A stretch of DNA of 63,876 bases, counting the filler, from Caldilineae bacterium (GTDB taxonomy: Bacteria > Chloroflexota > Anaerolineae > DTLA01), in the NCBI GenBank assembly GCA_037446815.1. It is 9 parts of 9 records of this genome, joined end to end, with 100 filler letters (N's around TTAATTAATTAA, not from the genome) between each part and the next. Parts side by side here need not be neighbours in the genome. Positions count along the whole stretch, not along the records: positions 21,589 to 28,634 come from JBBIHX010000152.1; 8 more parts are not named here. One strand, 5' to 3'. The notes below the pieces were generated by a model. That model was given only the letters and a program-made list of their open reading frames with translations. It did no database searches and had not been told where the DNA came from. Positions 4,124 through 42,953 of this stretch are shown one piece after another. The number at the start of each line of letters is the position of its first letter. The first letter of the stretch is position 1. Both the position numbers and the translations under genes were made by a program.

Positions 4124-4357
4124 TCACGCCTCCTCCGCCCGAATGTACCATTGGTCTAGCGCCTCGTCGTAGATAAGCGTGGCGTCCGCGCCATCGGCCA
4201 GGCGCACCCGAAAGGCGGGGCCTTGGGGCTCGCGCCAGCGCCGCAGCACCGCCACGACTTCAGCGCGGCCCTCGGGGCCTTCCACGGCGCGCGGCTCCTG
4301 GGCGTACTGATAGCCCGAGTAGCACTCCACCCGAACGGGTCTATTCGTCGTAGCCAT
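4124..4357 (-). CDS. Small conserved hypothetical protein (VECYSGY...EPR...RWREP...FRV...LIYD...W)
   Basis: 77-aa ORF overlapping the 3' end of the upstream gene in operon orientation. Resembles short DUF6504-like proteins (recalled, not searched). Confidence 0.6.
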   Translation of the reverse strand: MATTNRPVRVECYSGYQYAQEPRAVEGPEGRAEVVAVLRRWREPQGPAFRVRLADGADATLIYDEALDQWYIRAEEA

Positions 4358-5339: not shown

Positions 5340-5345
5340 GGCCGT

Positions 5346-6830
5346 TCAGACCTCCTTGTCCAGATTCGGCTTTCGCGTATGCCAATCGGTAGCCTGCTCG
5401 TAGGCATAGGCTACTCGCAACACGGTGGGTTCGTCAAATGCGTTGCCGATGATTTGCAGGCCGACCGGCAGCCCATCGGCGAATCCACAGGGCACGGATA
5501 TTCCACACACGCCGGCCAGCGAGGCCGCCAGCGTGAACACGTCGGACAGGTACATCTGCAGGGGGTCTTGGGCGCGCGCCCCGATGGGGAACGCGACCGT
5601 GGGCGACACGGGGCACGCGATGACGTCCACCTGTTGGAAGGCGCGGTCAAAGTCGCGGCGGATGAGCGTGCGGGTCTGCTGGGCGCGCAGGTAGTACGCG
5701 TCGTAGTATCCGGCGGACAGGGCATAGGTGCCCAGCATGATGCGGCGCTTGACCTCGGCGCCGAACCCCTGGCCGCGCGTCTGCCGAATCATGTCCCACA
5801 CGTCGCCGCCCTCGCGCACCGACAGGCCGTATTTCACGCCGTCGTACCGGGCCAGGTTGGCCGAGGCCTCGGCAGGGGCGATGAGGTAGTAGGTGGGCAG
5901 TGCGTATTCCGTGTGCGGCAGCGACACGTCCACCAGGATGGCGCCCAAGTCCTCCAGGATGCCCAGGGCTGCCTTCACCGCGTCGGCCACGCCTGCCTGC
6001 ACTCCCTCCACGAAGTACTCCCTGGGCACGCCAACGCGAAGGCCGCGGATTTCGCCTTCCAGCGCGGCGAGGTAGTCGGGCACGGGCCTGTTCACCGATG
6101 TGGAGTCGCGCGGATCGTGGCCCGCAATGGCCTGGAGCAGGAGCGCGCAGCCGCGCACGTCCTTGGCAAGAGGCCCCACCTGATCTAGGGAGGACGCGAA
6201 GGCGACTAGCCCCCAGCGGGACACGCGCCCGTAGGTGGGCTTCAGCCCGACGACGCCGCACAACGCGGCGGGTTGGCGCACGCTCCCGCCCGTGTCGGAG
6301 CCCAGCGCGCCGAGGGCCATGTCGGCCGCTACTGCTGCCGCGCTCCCTCCGCTGCTGCCGCCGGGCACCCGCGACAAGTCCCACGGGTTGCGCGTGGTGA
6401 AGTAGGCGGAGTTCTCGGTGGATGACCCCATGGCGAACTCGTCGGTGTTGGTCTTGCCCAGGATGATGGCACCCTGTGCCTTGAGCCGCTCCACGACCGC
6501 GGCGTCGTAGGGCGGGACGAAGTTGTGGAGGATGCGCGAGCCGCACGTGGTGGGGATGCCGCGCGTGCACAGGATGTCCTTGATGGCGAGGGGGATTCCC
6601 ATCAGGCGCGGAGGCGGGGGGCCGCCCTCCCTGCGCCAGCGCAGGAACGACGCATCGGCTGCCTGCGCCTGCTGCACGGCGGCCTCGGGCTCCACGCGCA
6701 GGTACGCGCGGATGCGCGGGTCGAGGCGCTCAATGCGCCGCAGGACGGCCCGCGTGAGTTCCGCCGAGGACAGGTCGCCCGCGCGTAGCCGTTCGGCCGC
6801 CTCGTGGATGGTGAGGGCGCAGGGGTCCAC
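5346..6830 (-). CDS. gatA: Asp/Glu-tRNA amidotransferase subunit A
   Basis: [58 protein letters not shown]. Confidence 0.97.
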
Positions 6831-7129: not shown

Positions 7130-7229
7130 NNNNNNNNNNNNNNNNNNNNNNNNNNNNNNNNNNNNNNNNNNNNTTAATTAATTAANNNNNNNNNNNNNNN
7201 NNNNNNNNNNNNNNNNNNNNNNNNNNNNN
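7130..7229. other. Artificial contig linker
   Basis: 44 N + TTAATTAATTAA (stops in all frames) + 44 N. Confidence 0.98.
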
Positions 7230-11562: not shown

Positions 11563-12905
11563 CGTCGCACAACCTCAGCGTCGCGGACGGTAGCGCGAAC
11601 CGGGATGGGAGGCTCGCGATGGTGGATGTCATCCCAGCCCTGCGGCGCGATGGCCAGACGCTCGCCGCTCAAGAGGCCGGCGACGCCTTCCTGCCCGCCT
11701 TCGGAGTGCCGCTGCTGGCAGTAGGCGCAGGTCTTGGGGTCGTGCGAGACGTAGTCGTCGGGCTGCGTGTAGGTGCTGATGAAGCCCTCGTAGTTGCGGA
11801 CGATGACGCGTGTCTCGGACATGCTGATGAGGTAGTTGGGCAGGATGGGCACCTTGCCGCCGCCCGCCGGCGCGTCTATCACGTAGGTCGGGATGGCGTA
11901 GCCCGACGTGTGCCCGCGGAGCGCCTCCATGATCTCAATGCCCTTGGCAACGGGCGTGCGGAAGTGCCCCGCGCCGTGGACAAGGTCGCACTGGTACAGG
12001 TAGTAGGGCCGCACGCGGTTCTTCACCAACTTGTGCACCAGGGCCATGATGATGTTCGGGCAGTCGTTCACGCCCGCCAGGAGCACAGTCTGGCTTCCCA
12101 GCGGGATGCCGGCATCGGCGAGTTTGTTCACGGCCTGCTCAACCTCGGGCGCGAGTTCCTTCGGGTGGTTGAAGTGGATGTTCACCCAGAGCGGATGGTA
12201 CCGCTTGAGGGTGTTGACCAGTTCATCGTTGACGCGCTGGGGCAGGAAGACCGGAACCCTCGTGCCGATGCGGATGACTTCCACGTGCGGGATGGCGCGC
12301 AGGCGCGCTAGAATGCCATCCAGGACCTTCAGGGGCAGCGTGAACGGGTCGCCGCCCGAGATGAGCACGTCCCGCACCTGGGGGTTCGCCGCGATGTAGG
12401 CAATCTGCCGCTCATAGTCGGCAAGCGAGAACTGCGCATGGGAATCGCCCACGACTCGGCTGCGGGTGCAGTAGCGGCAGTAACTGGCGCACTGCGTGGT
12501 TACCAGCATCAGCACGCGGTCCGGGTAGCGATGCACCAGGCCGGGCACCGGCGAATGGGCGTCTTCCGCGAGGGAGTCCTCCATCTCGGCGGCAAACGGC
12601 ACCAGTTCATGAGCCGTGGGGACCACCTGGCGACGGATCGGACAGTTGGGGTCGTCGGGATCCATTAGGCTCGCGAAGTACGGAGTGATGTCGGTTCGGA
12701 ACCGATTTGGGGCGCTGAGCGCGTCCCGCTCCGACTGGGTGAGGTGGATCACTTGTGAGAGTTCTTCAGCGGAACTGAGGCGATGGCTGAGTTGCCAGCG
12801 CCAGTCATTCCACTGGGACGGAGGCACATGCTCCCAGGGATGGGGAGGCCTCCCAGTACCGGGGGGTTCTTCAAATTCCTGTGCTATGGTTTCCACTAGT
12901 CTCAT
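11559..12905 (-). CDS. kamA: Lysine 2,3-aminomutase (KamA family radical SAM/PLP enzyme)
   Basis: HRYPDRVL, CASYCRYCTR (CxxxCxxC), ISGGDP, HFNHP, YYLYQCD, DAPAGGGK (PLP Lys), RNYEG, C-terminal CAYC. Confidence 0.93.
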   Translation of the reverse strand: MRLVETIAQEFEEPPGTGRPPHPWEHVPPSQWNDWRWQLSHRLSSAEELSQVIHLTQSERDALSAPNRFRTDITPYFASLMDPDDPNCPIRRQVVPTAHELVPFAAEMEDSLAEDAHSPVPGLVHRYPDRVLMLVTTQCASYCRYCTRSRVVGDSHAQFSLADYERQIAYIAANPQVRDVLISGGDPFTLPLKVLDGILARLRAIPHVEVIRIGTRVPVFLPQRVNDELVNTLKRYHPLWVNIHFNHPKELAPEVEQAVNKLADAGIPLGSQTVLLAGVNDCPNIIMALVHKLVKNRVRPYYLYQCDLVHGAGHFRTPVAKGIEIMEALRGHTSGYAIPTYVIDAPAGGGKVPILPNYLISMSETRVIVRNYEGFISTYTQPDDYVSHDPKTCAYCQQRHSEGGQEGVAGLLSGERLAIAPQGWDDIHHREPPIPVRATVRDAEVVRR

Positions 12906-14326: not shown

Positions 14327-14426
14327 NNNNNNNNNNNNNNNNNNNNNNNNNNNNNNNNNNNNNNNNNNNNTTAATTAATTAANNNNNNNNNNNNNNNNNN
14401 NNNNNNNNNNNNNNNNNNNNNNNNNN
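14327..14426. other. Artificial contig linker
   Basis: N44-TTAATTAATTAA-N44. Confidence 0.98.
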
Positions 14427-21488: not shown

Positions 21489-21588
21489 NNNNNNNNNNNN
21501 NNNNNNNNNNNNNNNNNNNNNNNNNNNNNNNNTTAATTAATTAANNNNNNNNNNNNNNNNNNNNNNNNNNNNNNNNNNNNNNNNNNNN
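21489..21588. other. Artificial contig linker
   Basis: N44-TTAATTAATTAA-N44. Confidence 0.98.
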
Positions 21589-21880
21589 TGCTGAGCCGAA
21601 GGCGATGCACCCTCGCCCTTCAGGAGAGGGCTGGGGTGAGGGGCGAGATTCTTCGCCCTCCGCCGCTCAGAATGACAGCAGATATTGTGTCATGCTGAGC
21701 CGAAGGCGATGCACCCTCGCCCTTCAGGAGAGGGCTGGGGTGAGGGGCGAGATTCTTCGCCCTCCGCCGCTCAGAATGACAGCAGATATTGTGTCATGCT
21801 GAGCCGAAGGCGATGCACCCTCGCCCTTCAGGAGAGGGCTGGGGTGAGGGGGAGATTTTTCGCCCTCCGCCGCTCAGAAT
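21589..21880. repeat. Tandem array of the TIR element, 104-nt period, about 3 units
   Basis: Units start at 21589, 21693 and 21797 and are essentially identical, including the short GCAGATATTG connector. Confidence 0.9.
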
Positions 21881-21994
21881 GGCGGTAGGTGCCAAAAGAC
21901 TTTGGAGCCGAACCTTCTTCGCGGCCACGTTAGATGCCACAGCGCGAACATGCTATAATGATCCCAGCCTGGATTCACGGAGCGTTGGCCCGGC

Positions 21995-23254
21995 ATGAGA
22001 GAATGGTTTCGCAGGCAGCGGCTGGACGTCGGCGTGGAGCGCGTGCTGTGGCTTCGCTGGGTGGCGACGGGACTTGTCGTTGTCGTCGCCCTGCTGGGCT
22101 CTGCGCCCCCGTGGCCCCTGCTGCTTCTCCTCCTGGCCTACAACGCCGTGGTGGACATGTGGCAGCGGTTCTCACCCAGGTTGCGAAACCCGATGCTCGG
22201 ATTGCTCCCGGACATCCTTATCTTCGGGCGATTCGCCTATGAAGCGGGCGATGCGATGGGGCCCGCGTACCTGCTGTTCGTTGCCTCCGCTGCGTGGGCC
22301 GTTGCTGCCGAGGCTGCGCTCCAGGGGTGGCTCATCGGGCTGGGGTTGGGCGTGGGCTACGACGTGGCGATCTTGTGGGCGGCGCGGGCGTTTCCCGACG
22401 CGGCCGCGTTGGGCGGGTGGATTGTTCTGGCGCTAGGCCTGTCGCTGGTGGGCGGGCTGTCCGCCTCACTGGGCAGGCTGCTCCGCGCCGAGCAGCAGCG
22501 CGTGCTCCAGCAGGGCAAAGTGGCCGAGGAACTGCGCGCGCTGGAACAACTCAAGAGCGACTTTCTGTCCACGGTGTCGCACGAATTCCGAACACCGCTG
22601 ACGGCCATCAAGGTCTCCGTGGGCTTGCTGGCCGACCGACTCCGGGGTTCGGACGCAGAAATAGACCGCCTGATGAGCACAATCCTGCGCAATGTGGATC
22701 GGCTCAACCAGATGGTAGGTGGAGTGCTGGAAATGGCGCGCCTGCAGAGCGGGAAGGTCATCCTGCAGAAGCGCTCCGTGGACGCCTGCCAGGTGGTGCG
22801 TGAGATCGCCGGCTCGCTCCAGCCGCTCATGGACGAGAAGGACCAGTTGTTCACCCTGCGACTACCGGACACGCCTGTGCTCCTGATGGCTGACGCGAAC
22901 CGACTGGAGCAAATCCTGAGCAACCTGCTGTCCAACGCGCAGCGCTACACGCCGCGCGGGGGCCAAATCGCCGTAGAAGTGCGCGAACTGGGCGACTGGG
23001 TGCGCATCTACGTGTCGGACACGGGGCCGGGAATCCCCTACAACGAACTCCCGCACATCTTTGACCGCTTCTATCGTGGGCAGGTGGGGCGGAAGGCGGG
23101 GCCGGGCACCGGGCTTGGCCTGTCCATCGCGCGGTCGCTGGCGCGGCTGCACGGCGGCGATGTGGGGGTCAGCACCAAACCCGGGGAGGGGTGCGTGTTC
23201 TTCGTAACGCTGCCGAAAGAGGAGGCTCTCGGTGAGATTCCTGGTGGTAGATGA
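21995..23254 (+). CDS. Membrane sensor histidine kinase
   Basis: N-terminal TM bundle, H-box SHEFRTPL, N-box NLLSNA, DTGPGI, FDRFY, GTGLGL. TGcTATAAT at 21951-21959. Confidence 0.93.
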   Translation: MREWFRRQRLDVGVERVLWLRWVATGLVVVVALLGSAPPWPLLLLLLAYNAVVDMWQRFSPRLRNPMLGLLPDILIFGRFAYEAGDAMGPAYLLFVASAAWAVAAEAALQGWLIGLGLGVGYDVAILWAARAFPDAAALGGWIVLALGLSLVGGLSASLGRLLRAEQQRVLQQGKVAEELRALEQLKSDFLSTVSHEFRTPLTAIKVSVGLLADRLRGSDAEIDRLMSTILRNVDRLNQMVGGVLEMARLQSGKVILQKRSVDACQVVREIAGSLQPLMDEKDQLFTLRLPDTPVLLMADANRLEQILSNLLSNAQRYTPRGGQIAVEVRELGDWVRIYVSDTGPGIPYNELPHIFDRFYRGQVGRKAGPGTGLGLSIARSLARLHGGDVGVSTKPGEGCVFFVTLPKEEALGEIPGGR

Positions 23255-23924
23255 CGAGGCGGACGTGGTGGAGGTGGTCTCCGTAACCCTCAAGATGCAG
23301 TGGGGCGAGGAAGCGCAGGTCCTTGCGGCCTACACGGGGGAGGAGGCCCTGTCGCTGATGCTTTCGGGGCACCCCGATTTGGTCATTCTGGACATTGCCT
23401 TGCCGGACATGGACGGGTTTGAGGTATGCCGCCGAATACGCGAATTCTCCGACGTGCCCATCCTGATGCTCACGGCCAAAGATGACGAAATGGACAAGGT
23501 GCGCGGGCTGGAACTGGGGGCCGATGACTACATCACGAAGCCATTCGGGCACCTGGAACTACTGGCCCGGATTCGGGCTGTTCTCCGCCGGGTACAAATC
23601 CCTCTTCCCGCCACTGGTGGCTCGCGCATCATCGTCGGCGACGTGGTGCTCGATATGAACCGCCGCACGGTGGAGGTGCAGGGGCGGCCCATTCGGCTCA
23701 CGCCGACGGAGTTCAATCTTCTCCAGCAACTCATGCGCAACGCGGGCAAGGTGCTGCCCCACGAGACCTTGCTGGCGCGGGTCTGGGGGCCGGAGTACCG
23801 CCGCGAAATTGACTACCTGAAAGTGTACATCCGCCGCCTGCGCGAGAAACTGGAGCACGACCCGCAGAACCCGGAGTACATCCTCACAGAATACGGCATC
23901 GGATACTGGTTCCGCGGCCCGTGA
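23232..23924 (+). CDS. OmpR-family response regulator (KdpE-like)
   Basis: VVDDE, LVILDIALP, MLTA, DDYITKPF, LTPTEF, YIRRLREKLE, GIGY. GTG start overlaps the kinase. Confidence 0.93.
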   Translation: MRFLVVDDEADVVEVVSVTLKMQWGEEAQVLAAYTGEEALSLMLSGHPDLVILDIALPDMDGFEVCRRIREFSDVPILMLTAKDDEMDKVRGLELGADDYITKPFGHLELLARIRAVLRRVQIPLPATGGSRIIVGDVVLDMNRRTVEVQGRPIRLTPTEFNLLQQLMRNAGKVLPHETLLARVWGPEYRREIDYLKVYIRRLREKLEHDPQNPEYILTEYGIGYWFRGP

Positions 23925-23938
23925 GGGACGAAACGGTT

Positions 23939-23992
23939 TTTACCATTATTCACCGGTTTTTCCTCGCCATATTTACGCCTCCCTGATATGCT
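23939..23992 (+). promoter_or_regulatory. Putative promoter of the darA-glmL operon with TT(T/C)AC direct repeats
   Basis: TTTACC (23939), TTCACC (23949), TTTCCT (23959), TTTACG (23972), then TGaTATGCT (23984-23992). Confidence 0.45.
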
Positions 23993-24103
23993 GGTAGCAG
24001 AAGCACTGTTCGCTTTGTGAGCGCTGTTTTGTTTGCGTTGCCTGCAAGTTGCCGGTGAAGGCTATGCGGCAGGAGCCAGAATCTGCCGCGGAGGGAGTAA
24101 CCG

Positions 24104-24415
24104 ATGCGATTGGTCGCCGCGATGGTTCAGGATCCCGATGCCGATGATTTGCTGAACGCGCTCATGGAGCACGGATTCCGCGCCACGCGCATTGAGACCA
24201 CTGGCGGATTCCTACGCGGATCCAACAGCCTGATCCTCATCGGCGTGCCCGCCCAGCAGGTGGAAGACGTGCTGGACGTGATACGCCATCACTGCCACAC
24301 CCGCACTCAGGTCGTTACCCCCGACGATGCGCCTTTCCTGAACGGCGCCATTGAGGTGGAAATCGGCGGGGCCATCGTATTCGTATGGGAAATCACCCGA
24401 TTTGAGCGCCTATGA
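24104..24415 (+). CDS. darA: PII-like cyclic-di-AMP receptor (DarA/PstA/YaaQ family)
   Basis: VQD.DA..L..AL...GFRAT....TGGFLR..N...LIGV....V..VL.VI...C.TR, ending GGAIVFV. Confidence 0.88.
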   Translation: MRLVAAMVQDPDADDLLNALMEHGFRATRIETTGGFLRGSNSLILIGVPAQQVEDVLDVIRHHCHTRTQVVTPDDAPFLNGAIEVEIGGAIVFVWEITRFERL

Positions 24416-25866
24416 TTTCCAATGTTGTGCACCCGAAGGCGCGCTTGCACGGGCAAGCAGCAACGCTGGAATACCCTGCGCTGACCATTGACCTGGGGAG
24501 CACCTACACCAAGGTGGCCGTGATAGACTTGGCCCAGGCGAGGCTTATGGCGCGGGTGCAGGCCGTTACCACGGCCGAATCGGACATCACCGTGGGGCTG
24601 ATGAACGCGCTGGCCAAGTTGCCCGAGGACTGGGGGCGGCGGGCCGGCGAGTTTCCGGTGCGGTTGGCCTGCTCCAGCGCGCGCGGGGGCCTGCGGGTGG
24701 TAGCCATCGGCCTGGTGCCGGAACTGACGGCGGAGGCGGCTCGGCGCGCGGCGTTGGGGGCGGGCGCGCGGGTGATGAAGGCGTACTCGCATCACCTGAC
24801 CCTGGCCGAACTCGGCGAGATCGTGCGCATGGAGCCGGATATCATCCTGTTGTGTGGGGGCACCGATGGCGGGAATCAGGAGGTCATCCTGCACAACGCG
24901 AAGGCGCTGGCCCATTCTTCGCTCCGCGCGCCTATCGTCTTTGCGGGCAATAAGCACGCCGCCGACGAGGCGCGGGCGATGCTGGAGGAGCGCGGGAAGG
25001 AGGTCTACGTTACCGAGAACGTGATGCCCGCGCTGGGCGAGTTGAACGTGGAACCCGCGCGCCAAACCATTCGCGAAGTCTTCATGCGGCGGATTGTGGA
25101 CGGGAAGGGCCTGCGGAACGTGGAAGCGTTCGTCCAGTCGGTTGCCATGCCCACGCCGGAGGCCGTGATGCGGGCGGCCAAACTTCTCGCCAAGGGCACC
25201 AAATCCCGCGAAGGGCTGGGTGAACTGATGGTGGTGGATGTGGGGGGAGCCACAACGGATGTGCACTCCATCGCAACGGGGGAGCCGACGATGCGCACCG
25301 TGGTGCAGCGCGGCCTGCCCGAACCCTACGCCAAGCGCACGGTGGAGGGCGATTTGGGCCTGCGGGTCAGCGCGGCTTCGCTGTTGGAGTCCGTCGGCGA
25401 ACGCCGTCTTGCCCAGGAAGCAGGCCTTCCTGACAAGAACGTGGCGGCTATCGTGGAGAGATTGCCCCGCGACATCGGCTGGGTGGCCCATGACGAGACC
25501 GAGTGGGCGCTGGATGAGGGCATGGCCCATGCGGCGGTTCGCCTGTCGGTGGAGCGGCACGTGGGCTACCTGAAAGAGATGCGCCTGCCCGCCGGGTACT
25601 GCTATATCCAGATCGGCAAAGACCTGACGAACGTCCAGCACCTTATCGGGACGGGCGGGGTCTTCGCCTACGGGCAACACCCCTTTCGGGTGCTGCGCGC
25701 CGGGCTGTACGACCCGCAGAATCCGCTGTCGCTGAAGCCGAAAGCCCCCCGCCTGTGGATTGACAGGCCCTACATCCTATGGGCGGTGGGACTTCTATCC
25801 GAAGTGAATTCCGACGCGGCGTTTGATCTCGGCGTCGCCAGTCTGCAAGCAGAGGAGGACACATGA
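24412..25866 (+). CDS. glmL: Glutamate mutase accessory/reactivase-like ASKHA ATPase (GlmL)
   Basis: IDLGSTYTK, ACSSARGGL, AALGAGA, GGTDGGN, AGN, MPTP, VDVGGATTDVHS, KRTVEGDLG, IGTGG. Confidence 0.9.
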   Translation: MISNVVHPKARLHGQAATLEYPALTIDLGSTYTKVAVIDLAQARLMARVQAVTTAESDITVGLMNALAKLPEDWGRRAGEFPVRLACSSARGGLRVVAIGLVPELTAEAARRAALGAGARVMKAYSHHLTLAELGEIVRMEPDIILLCGGTDGGNQEVILHNAKALAHSSLRAPIVFAGNKHAADEARAMLEERGKEVYVTENVMPALGELNVEPARQTIREVFMRRIVDGKGLRNVEAFVQSVAMPTPEAVMRAAKLLAKGTKSREGLGELMVVDVGGATTDVHSIATGEPTMRTVVQRGLPEPYAKRTVEGDLGLRVSAASLLESVGERRLAQEAGLPDKNVAAIVERLPRDIGWVAHDETEWALDEGMAHAAVRLSVERHVGYLKEMRLPAGYCYIQIGKDLTNVQHLIGTGGVFAYGQHPFRVLRAGLYDPQNPLSLKPKAPRLWIDRPYILWAVGLLSEVNSDAAFDLGVASLQAEEDT

Positions 25867-26957
25867 CACAGCCAGTCAAGGTAGCGGTTGTTGGTGGAGG
25901 CAACGGCGCCCATGCCATGGCGGGCCACCTGGCGCTAAAGGGGCACACGGTGCGGTTGTACAGCGCCTTCCCCCAGGAGATACGCGCCATGCAGGAGGCC
26001 GGCGGCGTGTTTGTGGAAGGCGCGGTGGAGGGGTTTGGGCGGCTGGATGCCATCTCGGCAGACCCTGCGGCAGTCGTCCCGTGGGCCGATGTCATCATGA
26101 TTGTGGTGCCGGCGTTCGCGCATCGCCCCCTGGCCGAGGCCCTCGCCCCGCACCTGCACGACGGCCAGGTGGTGCTGCTCAACCCTGGGCGGACGGGCGG
26201 CGCGCTGGAAGTCGTCGCGGTGCTGAGGCGGCTGGGGGTTCGCGCCGATGTCGTCGTGGGCGAGGCGCAGACGCTCATCTACGCCTGCCGCATCACGGGG
26301 CCGGCGCGGGTGCGCGTGCTAGGAATCAAGCGGGCGGTGCCCGTGGCGGCGCTGCCGGCGACCGAGAACGAGCGCCTGCTGGCGAAGGTTGTGCCCCTGT
26401 TCCCTGAGTTCTGCCCGGCGGCAAACGTTTTGGAGACCAGCCTGGACAACATCGGCGCGGTGTTCCATCCGGCCACCATGGTGCTCAATGCCAACCGAAT
26501 TGAGGCGGGCGACGATTTTGACTTCTACCAGGGGATGACGCCCATGGTTACCAAGACGCTGGAGGCGGTGGACGCCGAGCGCCTTGCCGTGGCCCAGGCA
26601 TACGGCGTCGCCACCGAGTCCGCCGCCGACTGGCTCCTCAAGGCGTACGACGGGGTTCGGGGCGAGACGCTGTATGAGCGCATCCAGAGCAACCGCGCCT
26701 ACGCGGGCATCAAGGCCCCCAAGTCGCTGAACGTGCGCTACATCACCGAGGACGTGCCCACAGGCTTGGTGCCCATTGCCGCGTTCGGCAGGGCGGCGGG
26801 CCTCACCATGCGGACGTGCGAGGGCATCATTGACCTGTGCTGCACGCTGTTGGGGCGGGATTTCTGGGCCGAGGGCCGAAGTCTGGAGAACCTGGGCCTG
26901 GCGGGCATGGATCGCGAGGCCATCCTGCGCTACGTCAACGAGGGCGCGGGAGTTTAG
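25863..26957 (+). CDS. NAD(P)-dependent opine (octopine/nopaline) dehydrogenase family protein 1
   Basis: GGGNGAHAMA, NPGRTGGALE, ETSLDNIGAVFHP, DAERLAVA, RYITEDVPTGLVP. Confidence 0.9.
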   Translation: MTQPVKVAVVGGGNGAHAMAGHLALKGHTVRLYSAFPQEIRAMQEAGGVFVEGAVEGFGRLDAISADPAAVVPWADVIMIVVPAFAHRPLAEALAPHLHDGQVVLLNPGRTGGALEVVAVLRRLGVRADVVVGEAQTLIYACRITGPARVRVLGIKRAVPVAALPATENERLLAKVVPLFPEFCPAANVLETSLDNIGAVFHPATMVLNANRIEAGDDFDFYQGMTPMVTKTLEAVDAERLAVAQAYGVATESAADWLLKAYDGVRGETLYERIQSNRAYAGIKAPKSLNVRYITEDVPTGLVPIAAFGRAAGLTMRTCEGIIDLCCTLLGRDFWAEGRSLENLGLAGMDREAILRYVNEGAGV

Positions 26958-26975
26958 GCGGAGGGCAGAATCCGT

Positions 26976-28106
26976 ATGGGCGCAAACGGGCCGACAATCC
27001 TGGTCATCGGCGCGGGACACGGCGGGAAGGCGATGGCGGCCGACCTGGCCATCAAAGGCTTCCCCGTGCGGCTGTATAACCGCACCTATTCACGGATTGA
27101 GATGATCGCCCTGCGCGGGGGGATTGACCTGGAGTTTGAAGATGGCCGTTCGCAGTTCGGCCCGCTGGAGATGGTTACGTCGGATCTGGGCATGGCGCTG
27201 GAGGGCGTGAATCTCGTCATGGTGGTGGTGCCCGCGTCGGCCCATGCGGATATCGCGGCGCAGTGCGCGCCGCTGCTGGAGGATGGGCAGGTCATCATCC
27301 TAAACCCTGGGCGCACGGGCGGGGCGCTGGAGTTTCGGCGCGTGCTGCGGGAGCACGGGTGCCGCGCGTCGGTGGTTGTGGCCGAGGCGCAGACCTTTGT
27401 GCTGTCCAGCCGCTCCACCGGCCCCGCGGAGGCGCGCCTGTTCCGCTCCAAGATTACGGTGCCGCTGGCCGCGCTGCCCGCTACGGACACGCCCCGGGCG
27501 CTGGAGGTGGCCCGATTAGCCTACCCGCAGTTTATTCCGGCGCGCAACGTGCTGGAGACCAGCCTGGACAACATGGGCGCGGTGATGCACCCGTCGCTCA
27601 TGATCCTGAACGCCGGGCGCATTGAGGCGACGCGCGGGGAGTTTCAGTTCTACATTGACGGGGCCACGCCCGGGGTGGCGACCGTGCTGGAGCAGGTGGA
27701 CGCGGAGCGCCTCGCCGTGGCCCGCGCGCTGAACGTGCGGGCGCGGTCGGCGCTGGAGTGGCTGCGCGCCGCCTACGCTTCGGTGGGCGACGATCTGTTT
27801 CACGCCATCCAGGGCACGCCCACGTATCGCGGCGTTGCGGCCCCGCGCTCGCTGATGCACCGCTATCTGTTTGAGGATGTGCCGATGAGCCTGGTGCCCA
27901 TGGCGACCATCGGCGCTCACTATGGCGTGGAGACGCCGACGATTCGCGCCATCATCCAACTCGCGTGCGTGCTGCACCGCAAGGATTACTTCGCGGCGGG
28001 GCGCACGCCTGCGCGCCTCGGCATTGAGAACCTGAGCGTGCAGCAACTGACGGACTACGTAGAGGGACGCTGGAGAGCAGCACCGACCGAAGCAACTTCG
28101 CATTGA
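26976..28106 (+). CDS. NAD(P)-dependent opine dehydrogenase family protein 2
   Basis: GAGHGGKAMA, NPGRTGGALE, ETSLDNMGAVMHP, DAERLAVA, RYLFEDVP. Paralog of the upstream gene. Confidence 0.9.
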   Translation: MGANGPTILVIGAGHGGKAMAADLAIKGFPVRLYNRTYSRIEMIALRGGIDLEFEDGRSQFGPLEMVTSDLGMALEGVNLVMVVVPASAHADIAAQCAPLLEDGQVIILNPGRTGGALEFRRVLREHGCRASVVVAEAQTFVLSSRSTGPAEARLFRSKITVPLAALPATDTPRALEVARLAYPQFIPARNVLETSLDNMGAVMHPSLMILNAGRIEATRGEFQFYIDGATPGVATVLEQVDAERLAVARALNVRARSALEWLRAAYASVGDDLFHAIQGTPTYRGVAAPRSLMHRYLFEDVPMSLVPMATIGAHYGVETPTIRAIIQLACVLHRKDYFAAGRTPARLGIENLSVQQLTDYVEGRWRAAPTEATSH

Positions 28107-28121
28107 TTGCAAGGAGGAGTC

Positions 28122-28634
28122 ATGGCAAAGAAGACGATACTGGGGGGTTCTCTGGGAGAATGTGTCCATGTGGCCGGCGTGCTCAACTTCCTGCGCATCG
28201 CCGAGGAGCAGGGCTACAAGACTGAGTTCACCGGCCCGGCCACATCCATCGCCGAGTTCGTGGCGGCGGCCCAGGAGGTGGATCCGGACATCCTGGCCAT
28301 CAGTTACCGGCTCACGCCCGAGAACGCGCGCATCCTGCTCCGCGACCTGTGGCAGGCCTGCGAGGAGGCCGGGCTGACGCACAAGCGCTTTGTGTTCGGT
28401 GGAACCCCGCCGGTGGCCGCCGTCGCCCGCGAGGCCGGGTATTTTGAGGCCGTGTTCAGCGGCGAGCAACCGGTGGAGGCCGTCATCGCCTACCTGCGCG
28501 GCCAGCGGTTTGAGGAGATGACCGCGGCCGACTTTCCGGATGAGACCATGGCCCGCATCCGCTGGAAGGCGCCGTTCCCCATCATCCGCCATCACTTCGG
28601 CCTTCCGGCGGATACCATTGAGCCGACGGTGGAG
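28122..28634 (+). CDS. Cobalamin-binding protein (partial, runs off the contig)
   Basis: N-terminal B12 Rossmann domain: GECVHVAG (DxHxxG variant), AISYR and FVFGG. Continues into a second domain (PIIRHHFGLP). RBS AGGAGG. Confidence 0.8.
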
Positions 28635-28734
28635 NNNNNNNNNNNNNNNNNNNNNNNNNNNNNNNNNNNNNNNNNNNNTTAATTAATTAANNNNNNNNNN
28701 NNNNNNNNNNNNNNNNNNNNNNNNNNNNNNNNNN
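28635..28734. other. Artificial contig linker
   Basis: N44-TTAATTAATTAA-N44. Confidence 0.98.
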
Positions 28735-29244: not shown

Positions 29245-30165
29245 ATGAACGAGCAGAAAGCCTTTGTCATCGTGAACCCCACAGCCGCCAACGGGCGGGT
29301 GGCGGCGCAATGGCCCACCGTGCGGGAGCACCTGGCCAGCCTGGGCCTGGCCTTTGATTCCCGCCTCACCGAGCGGCCGCTGCACGCCACCGAGATCGCG
29401 CGCGAAGCGGCCAGCGCCGGGTACAGCCCCATCGTGGCCTATGGCGGCGACGGCACGCTTATGGAGGTGGTGAACGGCCTGCTAGGGGAGCCGGGCCTGC
29501 CCTCCACAGCGCCGCTGGGCATTATCCCTGGCGGCACCGGCTCCGACTTCGTGCGGACGCTGGGCATCCCCCACGATTACCGTCAGGCCTGCGCCAAACT
29601 AGTGGGCGGCACAGAGCGCCTGGTGGATGTGGGCCTGGCCGTCTTTCGCGGCTTTGACGGCAGCGAGCGGCAGATGTACTTCGCCAACGTGGCGGGCCTC
29701 GGCTTTGACGGCGAGGTGGTGGAGCGCGTGCAGCGGAGTTCCAAAGCCCTGGGCGGCACGCTGACCTACCTCACCAATCTACTCTTGACGCTGGTCTACT
29801 ACCGGAACAAGCATGTGGCCCTGCGCTTTGACGGTCAGGCGCAGGACCGGCGGATGAACTCGGTCGTGGTGTGCAACGGCCGCTACTTTGGCGGCGCTAT
29901 GTACATCGCGCCGCCAGCCGACGTGCAGGACGGCGAGTTTGAACTGGTGATCCTGGGCGATTTCTCCAAGGCCGAATTGGTGGTCAACGTCCCCCGCGTG
30001 TACAAGGGCACCCACCTGACGCACCCCAAGGTGCAAATCCACAAGGCGCGCGAGGTGCACGTGGAGGCCCGGGAGCGCATGCTGGTGCAGGCCGACGGCG
30101 AACTGGTGGGCCAAGCGCCAGCATCCTTCCGCATCGTGCCGCGCGTCCTGCGGGTCATCGCGTAA
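29245..30165 (+). CDS. Diacylglycerol-kinase-like lipid kinase (YegS/DagK/BmrU family)
   Basis: IVNPTA, GGDGTLMEVVNG, PGGTGSDF, NVAGLGFDG, NGRYFGG, QADGE. TGcTATAAT at 29210. Confidence 0.92.
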   Translation: MNEQKAFVIVNPTAANGRVAAQWPTVREHLASLGLAFDSRLTERPLHATEIAREAASAGYSPIVAYGGDGTLMEVVNGLLGEPGLPSTAPLGIIPGGTGSDFVRTLGIPHDYRQACAKLVGGTERLVDVGLAVFRGFDGSERQMYFANVAGLGFDGEVVERVQRSSKALGGTLTYLTNLLLTLVYYRNKHVALRFDGQAQDRRMNSVVVCNGRYFGGAMYIAPPADVQDGEFELVILGDFSKAELVVNVPRVYKGTHLTHPKVQIHKAREVHVEARERMLVQADGELVGQAPASFRIVPRVLRVIA

Positions 30166-30210: not shown

Positions 30211-30525
30211 GTGAAACAGGCGTGGAAGGGATTGTTGGGGTGGCGGTGGCCCATCCTGGGCGTCGTTGCAGGCGCGCTGCTCGCCAGCGTCCTGCGCTCG
30301 TTCGGCGTCGGCATCACGGTGGAGGAGGGCATCTTGTGGGGCGCGGTCGCGGGCCTCGTGGTGATGTACACGCCCTACTTCCTGCGCTCGGGCAAGATGG
30401 TTACCAAGCGTGAGAACAGAGTGGTCAACTTCGTCGTCGGCGTGTTCGTGTTCCTGGGCATCTCCGCCGTCATCATCACCATCTTCCTGGGCATCTTCTG
30501 GGTCCTGTCGCTGTTCATCCGATGA
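30211..30525 (+). CDS. Hypothetical membrane protein (3 TM)
   Basis: Hydrophobic 104-aa ORF, GTG start after GGAGG, ATGA overlap with the next gene. Confidence 0.7.
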   Translation: MKQAWKGLLGWRWPILGVVAGALLASVLRSFGVGITVEEGILWGAVAGLVVMYTPYFLRSGKMVTKRENRVVNFVVGVFVFLGISAVIITIFLGIFWVLSLFIR

Positions 30526-31868
30526 ACCCCGCGCGGAGGCGTATGCGAGCACAAATGCTCCTATCCGGTGAACGGCCCGACGCCCACAGAGAAGCGATCG
30601 AGGAGGCGGGTAGCCGCCTGCCCGCGTCGGGCGAGGATCGCGCCCGCGCCTATGGCATGGTGGCCACGCCGCCCGAAATCGTGGAGTTCATGGTGCGCCT
30701 GTGCGAGCCCCTCCCCGCGGGGCCACTGGCAGTGCTGGAGCCGGCCTGTGGCGACGCCCCCTTTCTGCGCGCCTTTGCCGCGCGGTACGGGAGGCGCCAC
30801 GACCTCACAGGCGTGGACATCCACGCGGCAGAGACGCGCCTGGCGCAAGCCCAGATGCCCACAGCGCGCTTCCTGGATACCGACTACCTCCTTTGGGAAA
30901 CCGAGCAGCGGTTTGACATCATCATCGGCAACCCGCCCTATGGCATCATCGGCGACGAATCGCATTACCCGATTCACGCCCTTCGCGCACGCAAGGCCGT
31001 GTACAAGCGCCGCTTTGCCACCTGGTTCGGCAAGTACAACGTGTACGGGGCGTTCATCGAGCAATCCATTCGCCTTCTGAAGCCCGAAGGCAAGGCCGTG
31101 CTCGTGGTTCCCGCCACATGGCTTGTTCTAGACGATTTCGCGAGACTCCGCGCGTTCCTGGCGCACTCGGGCAAGGTAGCGGTCTACTACCTGGGCAAGG
31201 CATTCCCCAAGCGAAACGTGAGCGCCGTGGTCCTCGTGCTGACGAGAGGCGAACGGGGGCTGGAACTCTACGACGGCATGGAACGCGCCGTGGGCAAGCC
31301 GGAGTATCACGGCGAGATCATCCGATTCGAGACGCCCGACGCGCTGGCGTTTGAGCGCGGAGGCATCCCGCTCGGCGAGTGTTTTCGCGTTCACTTCGCG
31401 GCGCGAAGCCCAGAGATTCGGAAACACCCTTCGGTCGTTACCGAGCCCCGCGAGGGCTGCGTCCCTATCCTGACGGGTCGCAACCTGCAGCGTGGGCGGA
31501 TTGACTACGAGACGTGCTACTCGGGGCTGTGGATGCCGCGAGAAGATGCGCCGCAACTCCGGGCCTTCTACGCTTCGCCCCACATCGTCGTTGCCCATAC
31601 CAAAGGAACGCGCGTCGTCGCCGCTGTGGACCGACGTTGCTATCCCTGGCGTGAGGAGTTCCACCTGGTGCCGACGGTCGCCATCGCAGATTTGGATGCC
31701 GTCGTCGCACACCTGAATAGCGAGAGGATGCAACAGCACACACATAGCCTCTACCGAGACTTCGTGCCCCACCTCACCGCCACCATGTTGCGGCTGCTTC
31801 CGATACCGCAGGAGTTGATCTCTCTTCCCGTTGGTGCACAACTGGCTCTGTGGAGGGATAGCGCATGA
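30522..31868 (+). CDS. N6-adenine DNA methyltransferase, M.TaqI-like (predicted TCGA)
   Basis: TPPEIV.FMV, LEPACG, GNPPY, GKYN.YGAF, PATWLVL, FAARSPE, VAHTKGTRVVAA, PWREEFHL and LYRDFVPHLT match M.TaqI motifs as recalled, including the target-recognition domain. Confidence 0.92.
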   Translation: MNPARRRMRAQMLLSGERPDAHREAIEEAGSRLPASGEDRARAYGMVATPPEIVEFMVRLCEPLPAGPLAVLEPACGDAPFLRAFAARYGRRHDLTGVDIHAAETRLAQAQMPTARFLDTDYLLWETEQRFDIIIGNPPYGIIGDESHYPIHALRARKAVYKRRFATWFGKYNVYGAFIEQSIRLLKPEGKAVLVVPATWLVLDDFARLRAFLAHSGKVAVYYLGKAFPKRNVSAVVLVLTRGERGLELYDGMERAVGKPEYHGEIIRFETPDALAFERGGIPLGECFRVHFAARSPEIRKHPSVVTEPREGCVPILTGRNLQRGRIDYETCYSGLWMPREDAPQLRAFYASPHIVVAHTKGTRVVAAVDRRCYPWREEFHLVPTVAIADLDAVVAHLNSERMQQHTHSLYRDFVPHLTATMLRLLPIPQELISLPVGAQLALWRDSA

Positions 31869-32106: not shown

Positions 32107-33759
32107 CTACGCCCCGAACACGTCCCGCTTCTCCTGCTCGCGCGCCTCGTCGGACAGGGTCTCGTTGCCGCGGGCAACCTCGGCCCAGAAGGTCGCGTCG
32201 TAGTTGCGCGGGCGCACCTGAATCGGCATCGGCACGGCGTGCCCCACCACCAGCACCTCCTGGCGGAGTTTCAGGCTGGCCAGCGCATTGCGCAGGGCGC
32301 TGCGGTCGCTCACGCCCGTCAGCACCGCGTCAATGTCCCGCTCGTCGGCCAACTTGCCCGAGATGCGCGTGCCCAGTTGCGACAGCACCTCCGAGTCTAT
32401 CCCCGACGGGCGCTGATCTATCACCATCAACGTTACGTGGAACTTGCGCATCTCGCGAGCAATGGTGCCGAAGGTCGTCTGCGAGGCCATGGCCGGATTC
32501 AGGAACTTGTGCGCCTCTTCCAGCGTAATCAGCAGGGGCCGAGGGCGATCTTCGGACTTCTGCGACTGGTCCCACTTCTCCGTCTGCTCCACCCACCGCT
32601 GGCGCACCCGCCGCGTTACCAGGTTGGACACCAGCATGTAATCCATCATGGTGTTGTACTTGCCAAAGTGCAGGATGACGTGCTGGCCCCGCTCAAGGGT
32701 CAGGGTAATCTCATCCAGCAGGTTGGACCCCATCTCGGGGCGCACGTATTCCTTCCGCGACAGTTTCTTCAAATCGCGTTGGAGCGCCTGCACCGAGCCT
32801 TCGTGCGCGCCCGAGCGCTCGCAGAACGCGCTGAGAGCGTCGGAATCCATCTCTATCAGGGCGGAAAGCCATCTGTCGTGGTATTCGTCCACCAACAGGC
32901 CCATCATCGTGCTCGCCTTGGCCGTCAGCCCCAGTTCTTGCGCCATGAGGATGACATCCTCGGGCTCAATCTGATTCATCCCGATTTGTAGGACGCCGTC
33001 GGCGGCGCGACCGGGCTTGTTGGCGTCGGACGGATCCAGGGTGTACACCCGCACCTTTGACCCGAACAGGTGCTTCAGCCCCTTCACATGCACCTTGGCC
33101 TCGCTCTCCTTGCCGTAGGCGTACTCGCCGTGCACGTCAAAGATGAGGGTTGAGCCAATGTCGTGCCGGATGATGCCCGCCAGGAGCAGGAAAGCCGTGA
33201 AACTCTTGCCCGTGCCGGTCTGGCCGAAGATGCCGCTGGACCGCTCCATGAACTGTGCCAGGTTCAGGCAAATCGGCAGGTCCATGGTCAGGGGCTGGCC
33301 GAAGACGAAGTGATTCGGCCTGTCCGGCGAGCCGAAGACGGTGAGGAAGTCAATCTCCGTCGCCTCCACAAGTTCGGCGTAGTGCATAGGGATCGTTCGG
33401 ACGGACATGACGCCGCGCGCCTCTGCCGTCTCCCCCGTCAACTGGCGCGAGGGGTCCGCCACGTCCACGTTGGCCATCATGAGCATCGGCTTGACCACGG
33501 CCATGGCGTAGGTCGCCGAGCCGCTGAGGACCCGCGCGACGAACGGCGTGAAGCCCTGCGGCGGCTTGGCGATGAGGCGCGCGTCCGACGTGCGCAACTG
33601 CAAGTCGGACAACATGCAGAAGTAGGTGTACTCGCGCCCCTGCACCACCATGAAACTGCCGATTTGCAGGTCCTCGGTGCTGCGCCCTGGGTCCAACCGC
33701 ACGGTAAGCCCCGCCGTGAATGAGCCATCCACTACAACGCCAAGACGTTTCCTCTCCAT
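32107..33759 (-). CDS. herA: HerA/FtsK-family ATPase (DUF87) with N-terminal HAS barrel
   Basis: Walker A GQTGTGKS, FDVHGEY, Walker B LEEAHKF, IAREMRK, DQRPS. ATG 33759 follows GGAGG. Confidence 0.88.
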   Translation of the reverse strand: MERKRLGVVVDGSFTAGLTVRLDPGRSTEDLQIGSFMVVQGREYTYFCMLSDLQLRTSDARLIAKPPQGFTPFVARVLSGSATYAMAVVKPMLMMANVDVADPSRQLTGETAEARGVMSVRTIPMHYAELVEATEIDFLTVFGSPDRPNHFVFGQPLTMDLPICLNLAQFMERSSGIFGQTGTGKSFTAFLLLAGIIRHDIGSTLIFDVHGEYAYGKESEAKVHVKGLKHLFGSKVRVYTLDPSDANKPGRAADGVLQIGMNQIEPEDVILMAQELGLTAKASTMMGLLVDEYHDRWLSALIEMDSDALSAFCERSGAHEGSVQALQRDLKKLSRKEYVRPEMGSNLLDEITLTLERGQHVILHFGKYNTMMDYMLVSNLVTRRVRQRWVEQTEKWDQSQKSEDRPRPLLITLEEAHKFLNPAMASQTTFGTIAREMRKFHVTLMVIDQRPSGIDSEVLSQLGTRISGKLADERDIDAVLTGVSDRSALRNALASLKLRQEVLVVGHAVPMPIQVRPRNYDATFWAEVARGNETLSDEAREQEKRDVFGA

Positions 33760-33796
33760 ATCCTGCCTCCGAGTTACGCGCCCACAAGCGCACCGC

Positions 33797-34393
33797 TTAT
33801 GCTTCCGGATCCACGGCGTACAGCACGGCCAGCAGCCTCTCCACGTCCTGCTGGAGCAGCCCTGCCACTTCCAGCGCGGCCTGTTCCAGCCACGCCTCAT
33901 CGCGCCCGCGCTGCTCATACGCCCAGGCCAGGTGAGCGGCGAGGACATGCTCCACCGGCACAGGCACCTGGGCCGTGGCCAGCGTGCGCAGGTACAGCCG
34001 CCGCTCCGAGAACTCCCTCACCTCATCCGGCCCGCACGCATACACCGAGTAGTGCATGGGGGGCGGCTGGGACGGAATCCGCTGACTCACCCGACCGTCC
34101 GCCAGCGACCCCACGGGAATCACAGTGAACTTGGTGTGGAGCAGGTGCTCCAATTCGGGGTGGCGGGCATACACCGCGTCGTCGTAGGCGTCGGGTCGGC
34201 TGCGGCGCACGGCCCCGCGCCCCGGGTCCACCGACACCGTCTCGCCGAAGGCCACGACGCCGTAAATCCACGTGTCGCGCCCCCCTTGCGCCTTCACCAG
34301 GCTGCCGAGCGCCGGCGGGCGGTTCAGGACGAAACTCTCGGCCACGAACGTGAACGAGTCGGTCTCAATGATCTCGCCGATTCTCTCGGTCAT
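33797..34393 (-). CDS. Stand-alone HAS-barrel domain protein
   Basis: IGEIIET....FVAE....PPALGSLVK...IYGVV...P.QPP.MH..V pattern; sits between nurA and herA. Confidence 0.75.
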   Translation of the reverse strand: MTERIGEIIETDSFTFVAESFVLNRPPALGSLVKAQGGRDTWIYGVVAFGETVSVDPGRGAVRRSRPDAYDDAVYARHPELEHLLHTKFTVIPVGSLADGRVSQRIPSQPPPMHYSVYACGPDEVREFSERRLYLRTLATAQVPVPVEHVLAAHLAWAYEQRGRDEAWLEQAALEVAGLLQQDVERLLAVLYAVDPEA

Positions 34394-35744: not shown

Positions 35745-35844
35745 NNNNNNNNNNNNNNNNNNNNNNNNNNNNNNNNNNNNNNNNNNNNTTAATTAATTAA
35801 NNNNNNNNNNNNNNNNNNNNNNNNNNNNNNNNNNNNNNNNNNNN
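35745..35844. other. Artificial contig linker
   Basis: N44-TTAATTAATTAA-N44. Confidence 0.98.
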
Positions 35845-42853: not shown

Positions 42854-42953
42854 NNNNNNNNNNNNNNNNNNNNNNNNNNNNNNNNNNNNNNNNNNNNTTA
42901 ATTAATTAANNNNNNNNNNNNNNNNNNNNNNNNNNNNNNNNNNNNNNNNNNNN
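42854..42953. other. Artificial contig linker
   Basis: N44-TTAATTAATTAA-N44. Confidence 0.98.

Follow-up and report, generated by a model that had tools for sequence, protein, structure and literature searches.

A single-chain glutamate-mutase-like B12 protein paired with opine dehydrogenases in a DarA-GlmL operon of a Caldilineae bacterium

Gene content of the operon

The window analyzed here is a stretch of 63,876 nucleotides from a Caldilineae bacterium (GenBank assembly GCA_037446815.1), and five co-directional open reading frames (ORFs) on its plus strand within 24104-28634 form the operon described in this study. The first gene (24104..24415) encodes a PII-type receptor of 103 aa resembling the cyclic di-adenosine monophosphate (c-di-AMP) receptors DarA and PstA (PF06153). 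It is followed by genes for a GlmL/MutL-type ASKHA accessory ATPase of 484 aa (24412..25866; NF040745, PF13941) and for two opine dehydrogenases (PF02317), ODH1 with 364 aa (25863..26957) and ODH2 with 376 aa (26976..28106). The last gene (28122..28634, starting with the ATG at 28122; PF02310) encodes a B12 protein up to residue 171, a stretch comprising a GlmS-like B12-binding domain and a linker. The darA and glmL genes overlap in an ATGA at 24412-24415 and glmL and odh1 share 4 nt at 25863-25866, while gaps of 18 and 15 nt separate odh1 from odh2 and odh2 from the B12 gene, respectively. ORFs and junctions were re-read from the sequence and agreed with the five tightly coupled genes that the first-pass annotation of this DNA had described.

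The B12 gene is cut at 28634 because the contig holding the operon (21589-28634) ends there, and the remaining ~376 residues were not found elsewhere in the window. The adjoining positions 28635-28734 are an artificial, strandless contig join of N runs and the spacer ttaattaattaa and carry no biology; the end of the operon is a scaffold artefact and not a biological boundary. Relatives were used for the missing parts, with identities of 97-98% for the B12 protein and 91-95% for GlmL and the two dehydrogenases. Two loci of related genomes, L001 and L002, repeat the gene order of the operon (B12 protein 97% identical). With this order recurring and the dehydrogenase and B12 genes paired in most relatives, the arrangement is far beyond chance.

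Among sequenced metagenomes of sediments, hot springs, and the subsurface, seven DNA runs contained parts of the stretch (best share 0.51), and no RNA runs carrying it were listed. The Protein Atlas gave automatic names only.

Pairing of opine dehydrogenase and B12 genes across genomes

Longer relatives of the 171-residue fragment were searched for, and 5826 proteins at E<=0.001 were found among 7160 candidates. The best relatives were 547 aa long and 96-98% identical to the fragment, which matches residues 1-171 of the 547-aa proteins P0001-P0003 at 98% identity. All 120 listed relatives are single chains of ~547 aa (range 305-924 aa, the shortest being contig-end fragments), and the name B12E is used here for this family of single-chain glutamate-mutase-like B12 proteins. 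A B12E profile, searched exhaustively, matched 969 protein clusters at E<=1e-3, 664 at 1e-10, and 254 at 1e-30.

At least 576 species, each represented by one genome in the scan, carried a B12E relative, and 80 loci were kept. They were mostly from Anaerolineae, with others from Sumerlaeota, Bacillota, Bipolaricaulota, and Caldilineae. The loci come from metagenome-assembled genomes, and Anaerolinea, Bellilinea, Leptolinea, Pelolinea, and Thermoflexus are the genera that appear in their titles. At 63 of the 80 loci, at least 1.3 kb was available on both sides of B12E, and an opine dehydrogenase (ODH) gene lay within 3 kb in 59 of these 63. The four loci without one were L007, L009, L045, and L013, the last having an ODH gene 3.1 kb off. 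Counting all flanks, ODH occurred in 67 of 80 loci (49 upstream and 18 downstream of B12E), and GlmL within 6 kb of B12E in 16 of 80. Two ODH genes were present at only four of the 67 ODH-bearing loci (L001, L002, L003, and L010), and the idea that one dehydrogenase acts before and the other after the mutase can therefore be clade-specific at most.

Co-occurrence was counted in a class sample of 121 genomes, the lists being compared by hand. B12E was present in 59 and ODH (E<=1e-30) in 55 genomes; 52 held both, seven B12E only, three ODH only, and 59 neither (Fisher p = 1e-22, uncorrected for phylogeny). The seven genomes with B12E only comprised four of a long MutL-fused type and three fragments, and the ODHs of the three ODH-only genomes were just 35-37% identical to the query.

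The two proteins are also joined in nature. ODH-B12E fusions were found in P0025 (924 aa) and P0261, and B12E-MutL fusions of ~1250 aa in P0265 and P0272. Two further fusions join B12E to an ATP-grasp domain of the GshB/RimK-like kind (P0250, 863 aa) and, in P0253 (732 aa), to a peptidase M15 domain. They give a hint that an amide bond can link the pathway compound to another moiety. With adjacency in most loci, co-occurrence across the class sample, and natural fusions, the association noticed in the single operon proved to be conserved.

When neighbouring genes were clustered de novo, no further family turned out to be generally conserved near the ODH-B12E pair. An AsnB-like gene occurred in ten loci (L020, L028, L042, L063, L066, L068, L069, L071, L077, and L079). 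The N-terminal MCG(I/F) nucleophile was kept in 8 of 11 AsnB-like ORFs, most of which lie beside ODH-B12E, and the Cys was missing from those of L068 (12863-14221), L077, and L079; the copy of L066 passes the AsnB equivalog. A Ddl-like ATP-grasp gene was found in the Sumerlaeota loci and in L067.

Fold and conserved residues of the B12 protein

The fragment in the window matched PF02310 with 41.3 bits (cut-off 32.1). Full-length relatives combine this N-terminal domain with a weak C-terminal match to PF06368, methylaspartate mutase E, of 29.6 bits (cut-off 26.6). Prediction of the full B12 protein, as the first-pass annotation had proposed, was carried out with AlphaFold2 on the 98% identical relative P0001, standing in for the window's own full protein, with an alignment of 27 sequences (A1). 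The resulting model had a predicted local distance difference test score (pLDDT) of 85.2 and a predicted template modelling score (pTM) of 0.87, and consisted of a GlmS-like domain followed by a GlmE-like barrel. The top Foldseek match of the model was GlmE (1cb7_B, E 2e-16), and its N-terminal domain matched GlmS (1cb7_A) with a template modelling score of 0.76. VIA-align superposed residues 135-538 of the model on residues 41-440 of GlmE (6h9e_B) with a Z of 30.8 and a root-mean-square deviation of 3.1 Å over 371 residues. Lysine 5,6-aminomutase, ornithine 4,5-aminomutase, and methylmalonyl-CoA mutase share the barrel-plus-Rossmann architecture but ranked below GlmE, with Z values of 27.8, 25.9, and ~21, respectively. 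B12E differs from these other adenosylcobalamin (AdoCbl) isomerases in having no coenzyme A (CoA)-binding extension. A likeness to 2-methyleneglutarate mutase, which had no solved structure among the entries listed, is presumed. As modelled, B12E joins a B12-binding Rossmann domain of the His-on type to a barrel whose nearest counterpart is GlmE.

Of the cobalamin fingerprint DxHxxG...SxL...GG, A1 has H16, G19, S61, and G93-G94 as invariant residues, which include the cobalt-ligand His and the Gly of DxHxxG. In place of the Asp of this motif, all 27 rows of A1 have Cys; in the wider set A3, which has 37 family members, 17 rows have Cys and 16 of 34 aligned rows have Asp. No invariant Lys was found in the Rossmann domain of B12E; in aminomutases, the Lys that binds pyridoxal phosphate sits in this domain.

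By sequence, phmmer of P0001 and the A1 profile matched only B12 domains in the PDB and not GlmE, and hhalign of A1 against single GlmE gave nothing useful. When a GlmE alignment was used instead, the invariant E419 of B12E fell on GlmE E330, which we take to be the residue binding the adenosyl ribose. The residues of GlmE assumed here to bind the substrate are R66, R100, R149, E171, and Y181, with E171 holding the free amino group. Mapped onto B12E by structural offsets and motifs, with the GlmE numbering checked, R66 corresponds approximately to R156 (invariant in 37 of 37), R100 to Q194 (35 of 37), R149 to R237 or Y239, E171 to S or P264, and Y181 to R274. Besides R274, the arginines R311 and R380 are near-invariant in B12E. 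Further invariant residues that may line the pocket are D272, E301, D315, and H413.

Glutamate mutase of Clostridium cochlearium (GlmS/GlmE with GlmL; 1cb7, 1i9c, and 6h9e) shares with B12E the Rossmann B12 domain with its His and Gly, the triosephosphate isomerase (TIM) barrel of the GlmE type, a Glu at the E330 position, and a GlmL-family partner passing NF040745. It differs in being made of two subunits, glmS and glmE, whereas B12E is one chain of 547 aa with the S domain first. By offset mapping, B12E lacks the equivalents of R100 and E171 and has invariant arginines elsewhere. In the window's B12E clade, Cys replaces the Asp of DxHxxG. B12E is also almost always paired with ODH.

The GlmS and GlmE equivalog models were not reached. 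The window fragment scored 31.1 bits against NF002612 (cut-off 110) and 23.2 against TIGR01501 (cut-off 135.8), and full-length P0001 scored 25.8 against NF002612 and had no TIGR01503 match at E<=1e-5. As a positive control, true GlmE in locus L081 scored 589.8 bits against TIGR01503 (cut-off 390.1). The near-conspecific genome that holds L002, G001, also encodes canonical GlmE and GlmS, a second GlmL, and methylmalonyl-CoA mutase. Because the equivalog models are not reached and a canonical glmE-glmS-glmL set coexists in G001, B12E is not an ordinary glutamate mutase. An ordinary GlmS with glmE downstream was likewise not found, as no glmE follows the B12 gene in L001 or L002 and an ATP-binding cassette (ABC) importer stands there instead. 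By these sequence comparisons, B12E forms a separate family that does not belong to true glutamate mutase. It is very unlikely that B12E is a fused isozyme of glutamate (methylaspartate) mutase with ODH genes as unrelated neighbours. The match to PF06368 just above its cut-off and the accessory protein that passes the GlmL equivalog would fit such an isozyme, but it is opposed by the equivalog scores, by the canonical glmESL genes of the related genome, and by ODH adjacency, co-occurrence, and fusion that are too consistent for chance.

In L081 (G001:C51:4712-8944), the gene ahead of the canonical glmE-glmS-glmL set is aspartate-kinase-like (303 bits, short of the equivalog cut-offs), which is not a usual companion of glutamate mutase.

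A B12-domain profile run against the PDB matched a corrinoid protein, 4jgi, at E 7e-5, ahead of GlmS at E 0.0024. This best solved match, together with the Cys in place of the Asp of DxHxxG in the clade and an MttB-family gene beside darA in L004, would suit a non-radical corrinoid protein serving methyl transfer or sensing light or B12. Methyltransferase corrinoid proteins are, however, stand-alone or cap-plus-Rossmann proteins with an MtxB-type partner, whereas the Rossmann domain of B12E is fused in one chain to a mutase-type barrel. These C-terminal 400 residues resemble GlmE, the two aminomutases, and methylmalonyl-CoA mutase with Z values of 21-31, E419 is aligned to GlmE E330 (taken above to bind the adenosyl ribose), and GlmL is nearby in the 16 loci mentioned and fused in P0265 and P0272. 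No methyltransferase family was conserved near B12E, the lone MttB-family neighbour in L004 not being general. A non-radical function therefore appears highly improbable, and the two identities named in the first-pass annotation as possible refutations, a methyltransferase corrinoid protein and ordinary GlmS, were both set aside.

Substrate preference predicted for the opine dehydrogenases

ODH1 and ODH2 matched PF02317, Octopine_DH, with 152.7 and 154.5 bits, respectively (cut-off 30), and are 47% identical to each other. ODH2 aligned over residues 6-358 with the N-(1-D-carboxyethyl)-L-norvaline dehydrogenase of Arthrobacter (ArODH, 1bg6) at E 4e-79. In a maximum-likelihood tree of 68 ODHs, two clades were separated with support of 100/100. 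Clade A (11 rows) holds ODH1 and the ODHs of GlmL-containing operons from Anaerolineae and Bacillota, and clade B (57 rows) is the mainstream partner type of B12E and holds ODH2. As ODH1 and ODH2 fall in separate clades, they are not the result of a recent duplication.

Among 32 partner ODHs, the catalytic His H205 as well as R296, Y297, and E300 are invariant and D301 nearly so. R113 and G201 of ODH2, which map to A111 and N198 of ArODH in the 1bg6 alignment, are likewise the same in all 32 ODHs, and ODH1 has this pair along with the catalytic His and RYxxED. This residue pair links the partner ODHs to enzymes of measured specificity. Telek et al. (2024) report hot-spring metagenomic ODHs (mODHs) that are ~40% identical to ArODH and prefer L-Asp, L-Glu, and cysteate with pyruvate (PMC10787698). 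An Arg and a Gly, at ArODH positions 111 and 198, govern the preference for acidic amino acids there; ArODH itself has Ala and Asn at these positions and prefers hydrophobic amino acids. Double mutants swapped the preference both ways, with Arg/Gly turning ArODH from Phe to Asp (PMC10787698). A word search of the main text of that paper found B12, cobalamin, operon, and gene cluster all absent.

The partner ODHs share full-length homology, the Rossmann GxGxxG, the catalytic His, and the RYxFED motif with ArODH, and the Arg/Gly pair with the mODHs. By analogy, the partner ODHs are predicted to prefer acidic amino acids and pyruvate.

GlmL, DarA, and the operon context

GlmL of the operon matched NF040745 with 601.9 bits (cut-off 475) and PF13941 with 554.1 (cut-off 27), and is 55% identical to GlmL of the canonical glm operon in G001. 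It is presumed to be a mutase chaperone or reactivase.

The operon DarA matched PF06153, CdAMP_rec, with 104.7 bits (cut-off 27), but reached only 101.8 of the 140 bits required by the NCBIfam DarA equivalog NF058593. Its match to PstA (4d3g) is full-length at E 3.9e-20 with the RAT..TTGGFLR segment kept, and the loop after residue 73 is six residues shorter than in PstA. With the DarA/PstA receptors of B. subtilis (4rle), S. aureus (4d3g/4d3h), and L. monocytogenes (4rww) it shares full-length matches of E ~1e-20 and the PII-like size, and differs in being embedded in a metabolic operon and translationally coupled to glmL. The genomes G001, G002, and G051 carry a second PF06153 gene elsewhere, scoring 127-128 bits compared with 101-105 for the operon copy. 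On this sequence evidence, the operon DarA is a dedicated, diverged second copy and a paralogue of c-di-AMP receptors.

A DarA-like gene was found within 8 kb of B12E at 8 of 80 loci, and directly before glmL in seven of the eight. A profile of the operon-type DarA matched seven of the 121 class genomes with 176-190 bits. Five of the seven had the gene on the contig of B12E and within 5 kb of it; in G046 it shared a contig with a clade-A-like ODH, and in G089 it was on another contig. A c-di-AMP riboswitch (RF00379, 100-103 bits with a gathering score of 38) was detected directly upstream in 4 of 4 Sumerlaeota loci, where the operon runs ODH-Ddl-thioesterase-GlmL-B12E. In L086 (G038:C111:5500-13500), the minus-strand genes at 7129-1304 encode a Na+/H+ exchanger, a 230-aa protein with two PF06153 domains, B12E, and ODH. 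The same exchanger and tandem receptor occur in L087 (G081), followed by only a 175-aa B12-domain ORF.

The 3' part of the operon was read from L001 and L002, where the B12 gene is followed by an SBP_bac_5 binding protein, two permeases, and two ATPases of the Opp/Dpp type, and further on by a C45 N-terminal nucleophile (Ntn) hydrolase (NF040521, above cut-off) and an epimerase-like gene of the short-chain dehydrogenase/reductase (SDR) type. The best matches of the SBP_bac_5 protein, all sub-threshold, were GsiB, Opp4A, and NikA. The same transporter and hydrolase lie 5' of darA in L008 and L010, and part of the set, the ATPases and the hydrolase, in L004. In L003, an Orr-like racemase and a gamma-glutamyltransferase are located between permeases and darA (2903-5723), the former being an ornithine-racemase-like enzyme dependent on pyridoxal phosphate with 347.8 bits (below the cut-off of 480). 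An MscS channel gene lies just 3' of B12E in the same locus (11636-12487), and the MttB-superfamily methyltransferase gene of L004 (5591-7027) adjoins darA. By sequence, the module of the window's clade sits in an uptake-type operon with a Gsi/Opp/Nik-like importer that is complete in L001 and L002.

An importer of this kind, next to a dehydrogenase family that includes CntM, raises the question of whether the operon makes or recycles a staphylopine-like opine metallophore taken up by a Nik/Cnt-like ABC importer, and the binding protein of L002 does match NikA with 154 bits and CntA with 81.7 bits. Such matches are far below the cut-offs, with CntA at 81.7 of 800 and the best, GsiB, at 169.9 of 594. 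Only ODH, GlmL, AsnB-like, and ABC components recur nearby, no search aimed at CntL having been made, and most loci hold the pair without any transporter. We therefore give very little credence to a metallophore.

Upstream regulators, leader, and remaining contigs

Upstream of the operon on the same contig, the plus strand carries genes for a histidine kinase with HisKA and HATPase_c domains (21995..23254) and an OmpR-type response regulator with Response_reg and Trans_reg_C domains (23232..23924), which overlap by 23 nt. The pair also lies 5' of the operon in L002, and the response regulator was seen in L001 too. Regulation of the operon by the histidine kinase is probable, judging from this position.

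A leader or promoter region of 179 nt (23925..24103, +) separates the response regulator from darA and was aligned with those of L001 and L002. Its part 23925-24000 contains T-rich direct repeats, GTTTTTACC / TTCACC / GTTTTTCC, followed by CATATTTAC, all kept in L001 and L002. The repeats are possibly the site of the adjacent OmpR-type regulator, with a putative -10 element following. No Rfam family reached its gathering score in the window or E<=0.1 in 23700-24300, and no leader riboswitch was found by this search. Promoter and terminator scans of the leader gave nothing above shuffled sequences; one weak terminator-like hairpin was seen at 24007-24023, and shuffled sequences give more.

The window as a whole is made up of nine contigs, each ~7.0-7.1 kb long, with N-ttaattaattaa-N spacers between them. 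Besides the join next to the operon, joins are located at 7130-7229, 14327-14426, 21489-21588, 35745-35844, 42854-42953, 49947-50046, and 57039-57138, and gene neighbourhoods are not readable across them. The next contig is unrelated to the operon and carries genes for a YegS/DAGK-like lipid kinase (29245-30165), an N6 DNA methyltransferase of the Eco57I/TaqI type (30522-31868), and a HerA/DUF87 ATPase, the last on the minus strand (32107-33948). This contig (29245-33948) may represent a restriction or defence locus. Two adjacent tRNA genes were found on the minus strand at 56746-56933.

Discussion

The first-pass annotation regarded the cluster as a candidate new pathway. The pairing of ODH with a B12 protein was already printed by Zhang et al. 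(2009) as a predicted "novel B12-dependent protein family" (BMC Genomics 10:78, PMC2667541), so that novelty does not extend to the pairing itself. Their description of the family covers 11 genomes and holds no GlmE fold assignment, GlmL, DarA, c-di-AMP link, or ODH specificity; B12E is equated with its family by description and not by the sequences of its Figure 4. A characterised reaction was not found in the literature, and in this respect the claim stands. Beyond Zhang et al. (2009), a search that was not exhaustive brought up no paper in which opine or octopine dehydrogenase is connected to cobalamin, adenosylcobalamin, or glutamate mutase, and none assigning a reaction to B12E and ODH. 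New here are the DarA paralogue coupled to glmL, the presence of two deep ODH clades together, the uptake-type operon, and the link to the ODH specificity rule of 2024.

We regard it as fairly probable that a widespread orphan module, in which ODH and a single-chain, glutamate-mutase-like B12E act on an acidic opine or amino acid, is present at the locus in an expanded form specific to the clade. B12E itself is most likely an adenosylcobalamin isomerase of the glutamate-mutase kind. The coupling of opine formation or cleavage to a B12-dependent rearrangement, which had been suggested from the one operon, is supported by the conserved association and by the mutase-type B12E as judged from sequence and model.

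In the proposed mechanism, ODH would reversibly join an Asp- or Glu-like amino acid and pyruvate to an N-(1-carboxyethyl) tricarboxylate opine. B12E with adenosylcobalamin would then abstract a hydrogen and catalyze a 1,2 carbon-skeleton shift of the glutamate-mutase type on the acidic moiety, and GlmL would spend ATP on cofactor loading or reactivation. The opine is put forward only tentatively as the substrate of B12E, and is favoured because, by offset mapping, the amino-group residue of GlmE appears lost and conserved arginines gained. A free amino acid is a rather doubtful substrate. In the window's clade, the pathway would probably serve to salvage or degrade the compound after its import in an amide-linked form, and each of the two ODHs would handle a different opine. 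The DarA paralogue would tie it to c-di-AMP, and thereby to potassium and osmotic status, as a protein-level counterpart of the Sumerlaeota riboswitch.

The steps may also run in reverse order. B12E would then branch a free acidic amino acid, such as glutamate or an analogue, and ODH with pyruvate would pull the equilibrium, with amide ligases, where present, finishing a product resembling a compatible solute. GlmE being the closest fold to B12E is in keeping with this order, as are the ODHs of the Arg/Gly type, which take free L-Asp and L-Glu directly. The AsnB-like genes of ten loci and the Ddl-like genes adjoining the pair, the B12E-ATP-grasp fusion P0250, and the c-di-AMP riboswitches on the Sumerlaeota operons point in the same direction. 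On the other side, canonical glutamate mutase is already present in G001, E171 and R100 are not kept by offset mapping, and the extra invariant arginines R274, R311, and R380 fit a larger, more anionic substrate. The context in the window's clade is moreover one of import and hydrolysis and not of synthesis. Overall, this order seems unlikely, if by no means negligible.

Several points weigh against the preferred reading of a mutase-type B12E acting with ODH on an acidic opine or amino acid, and against its c-di-AMP link. The window's own B12E is a fragment of 171 residues, and the barrel, the importer, and the hydrolase are read from relatives. The assignment of B12E as an isomerase rests on fold and context. 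Its likeness to GlmE in sequence is marginal (hhalign probability 24% against the GlmE alignment, in the C-terminal half only), and its B12 domain is closer to the corrinoid protein 4jgi than to GlmS. The residue correspondences with GlmE come from offsets and motifs and not from residue-level superposition, and Asp is changed to Cys beside the cobalt-ligand His. The partner ODHs are likened to the mODHs by residues. Most loci have no DarA, and the c-di-AMP riboswitch was absent from 24 of 28 scanned loci and from the window. The neighbours also conflict, with AsnB- and Ddl-like ligases elsewhere suggesting synthesis, whereas the importer and hydrolases here suggest breakdown. The direction of the pathway probably differs between lineages, with synthesis where ligases are present and salvage or degradation in the window's clade.

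To our knowledge, few adenosylcobalamin isomerase reactions are known, and the widespread B12E family therefore represents a rare opening in B12 enzymology. The ODH residue pair, predicted to select acidic amino acids and pyruvate, narrows the candidate mutase substrates to a short list. The partner ODHs may further serve as reductive-amination biocatalysts for polar amines.

The c-di-AMP link takes three forms, namely the riboswitch of Sumerlaeota, the single DarA paralogue described here, and the tandem receptor beside a cation/proton antiporter in another Anaerolineae genome, and together they point to potassium and osmotic physiology. A review from 2023 describes the interaction partner of DarA as unidentified and its role as one that "remains enigmatic" (PMC10636490), and the operon offers a candidate pathway for this receptor. 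In the most far-reaching version, which we consider speculative and improbable, DarA would gate the B12 radical system through GlmL, and the system would make or break an anionic N-(1-carboxyethyl) opine of a branched acidic amino acid, serving as a K+ counter-ion or osmolyte in anaerobic Chloroflexota and other phyla. If true, this would provide the first physiological target for the DarA family as well as a new B12-dependent carbon-skeleton rearrangement on an opine.

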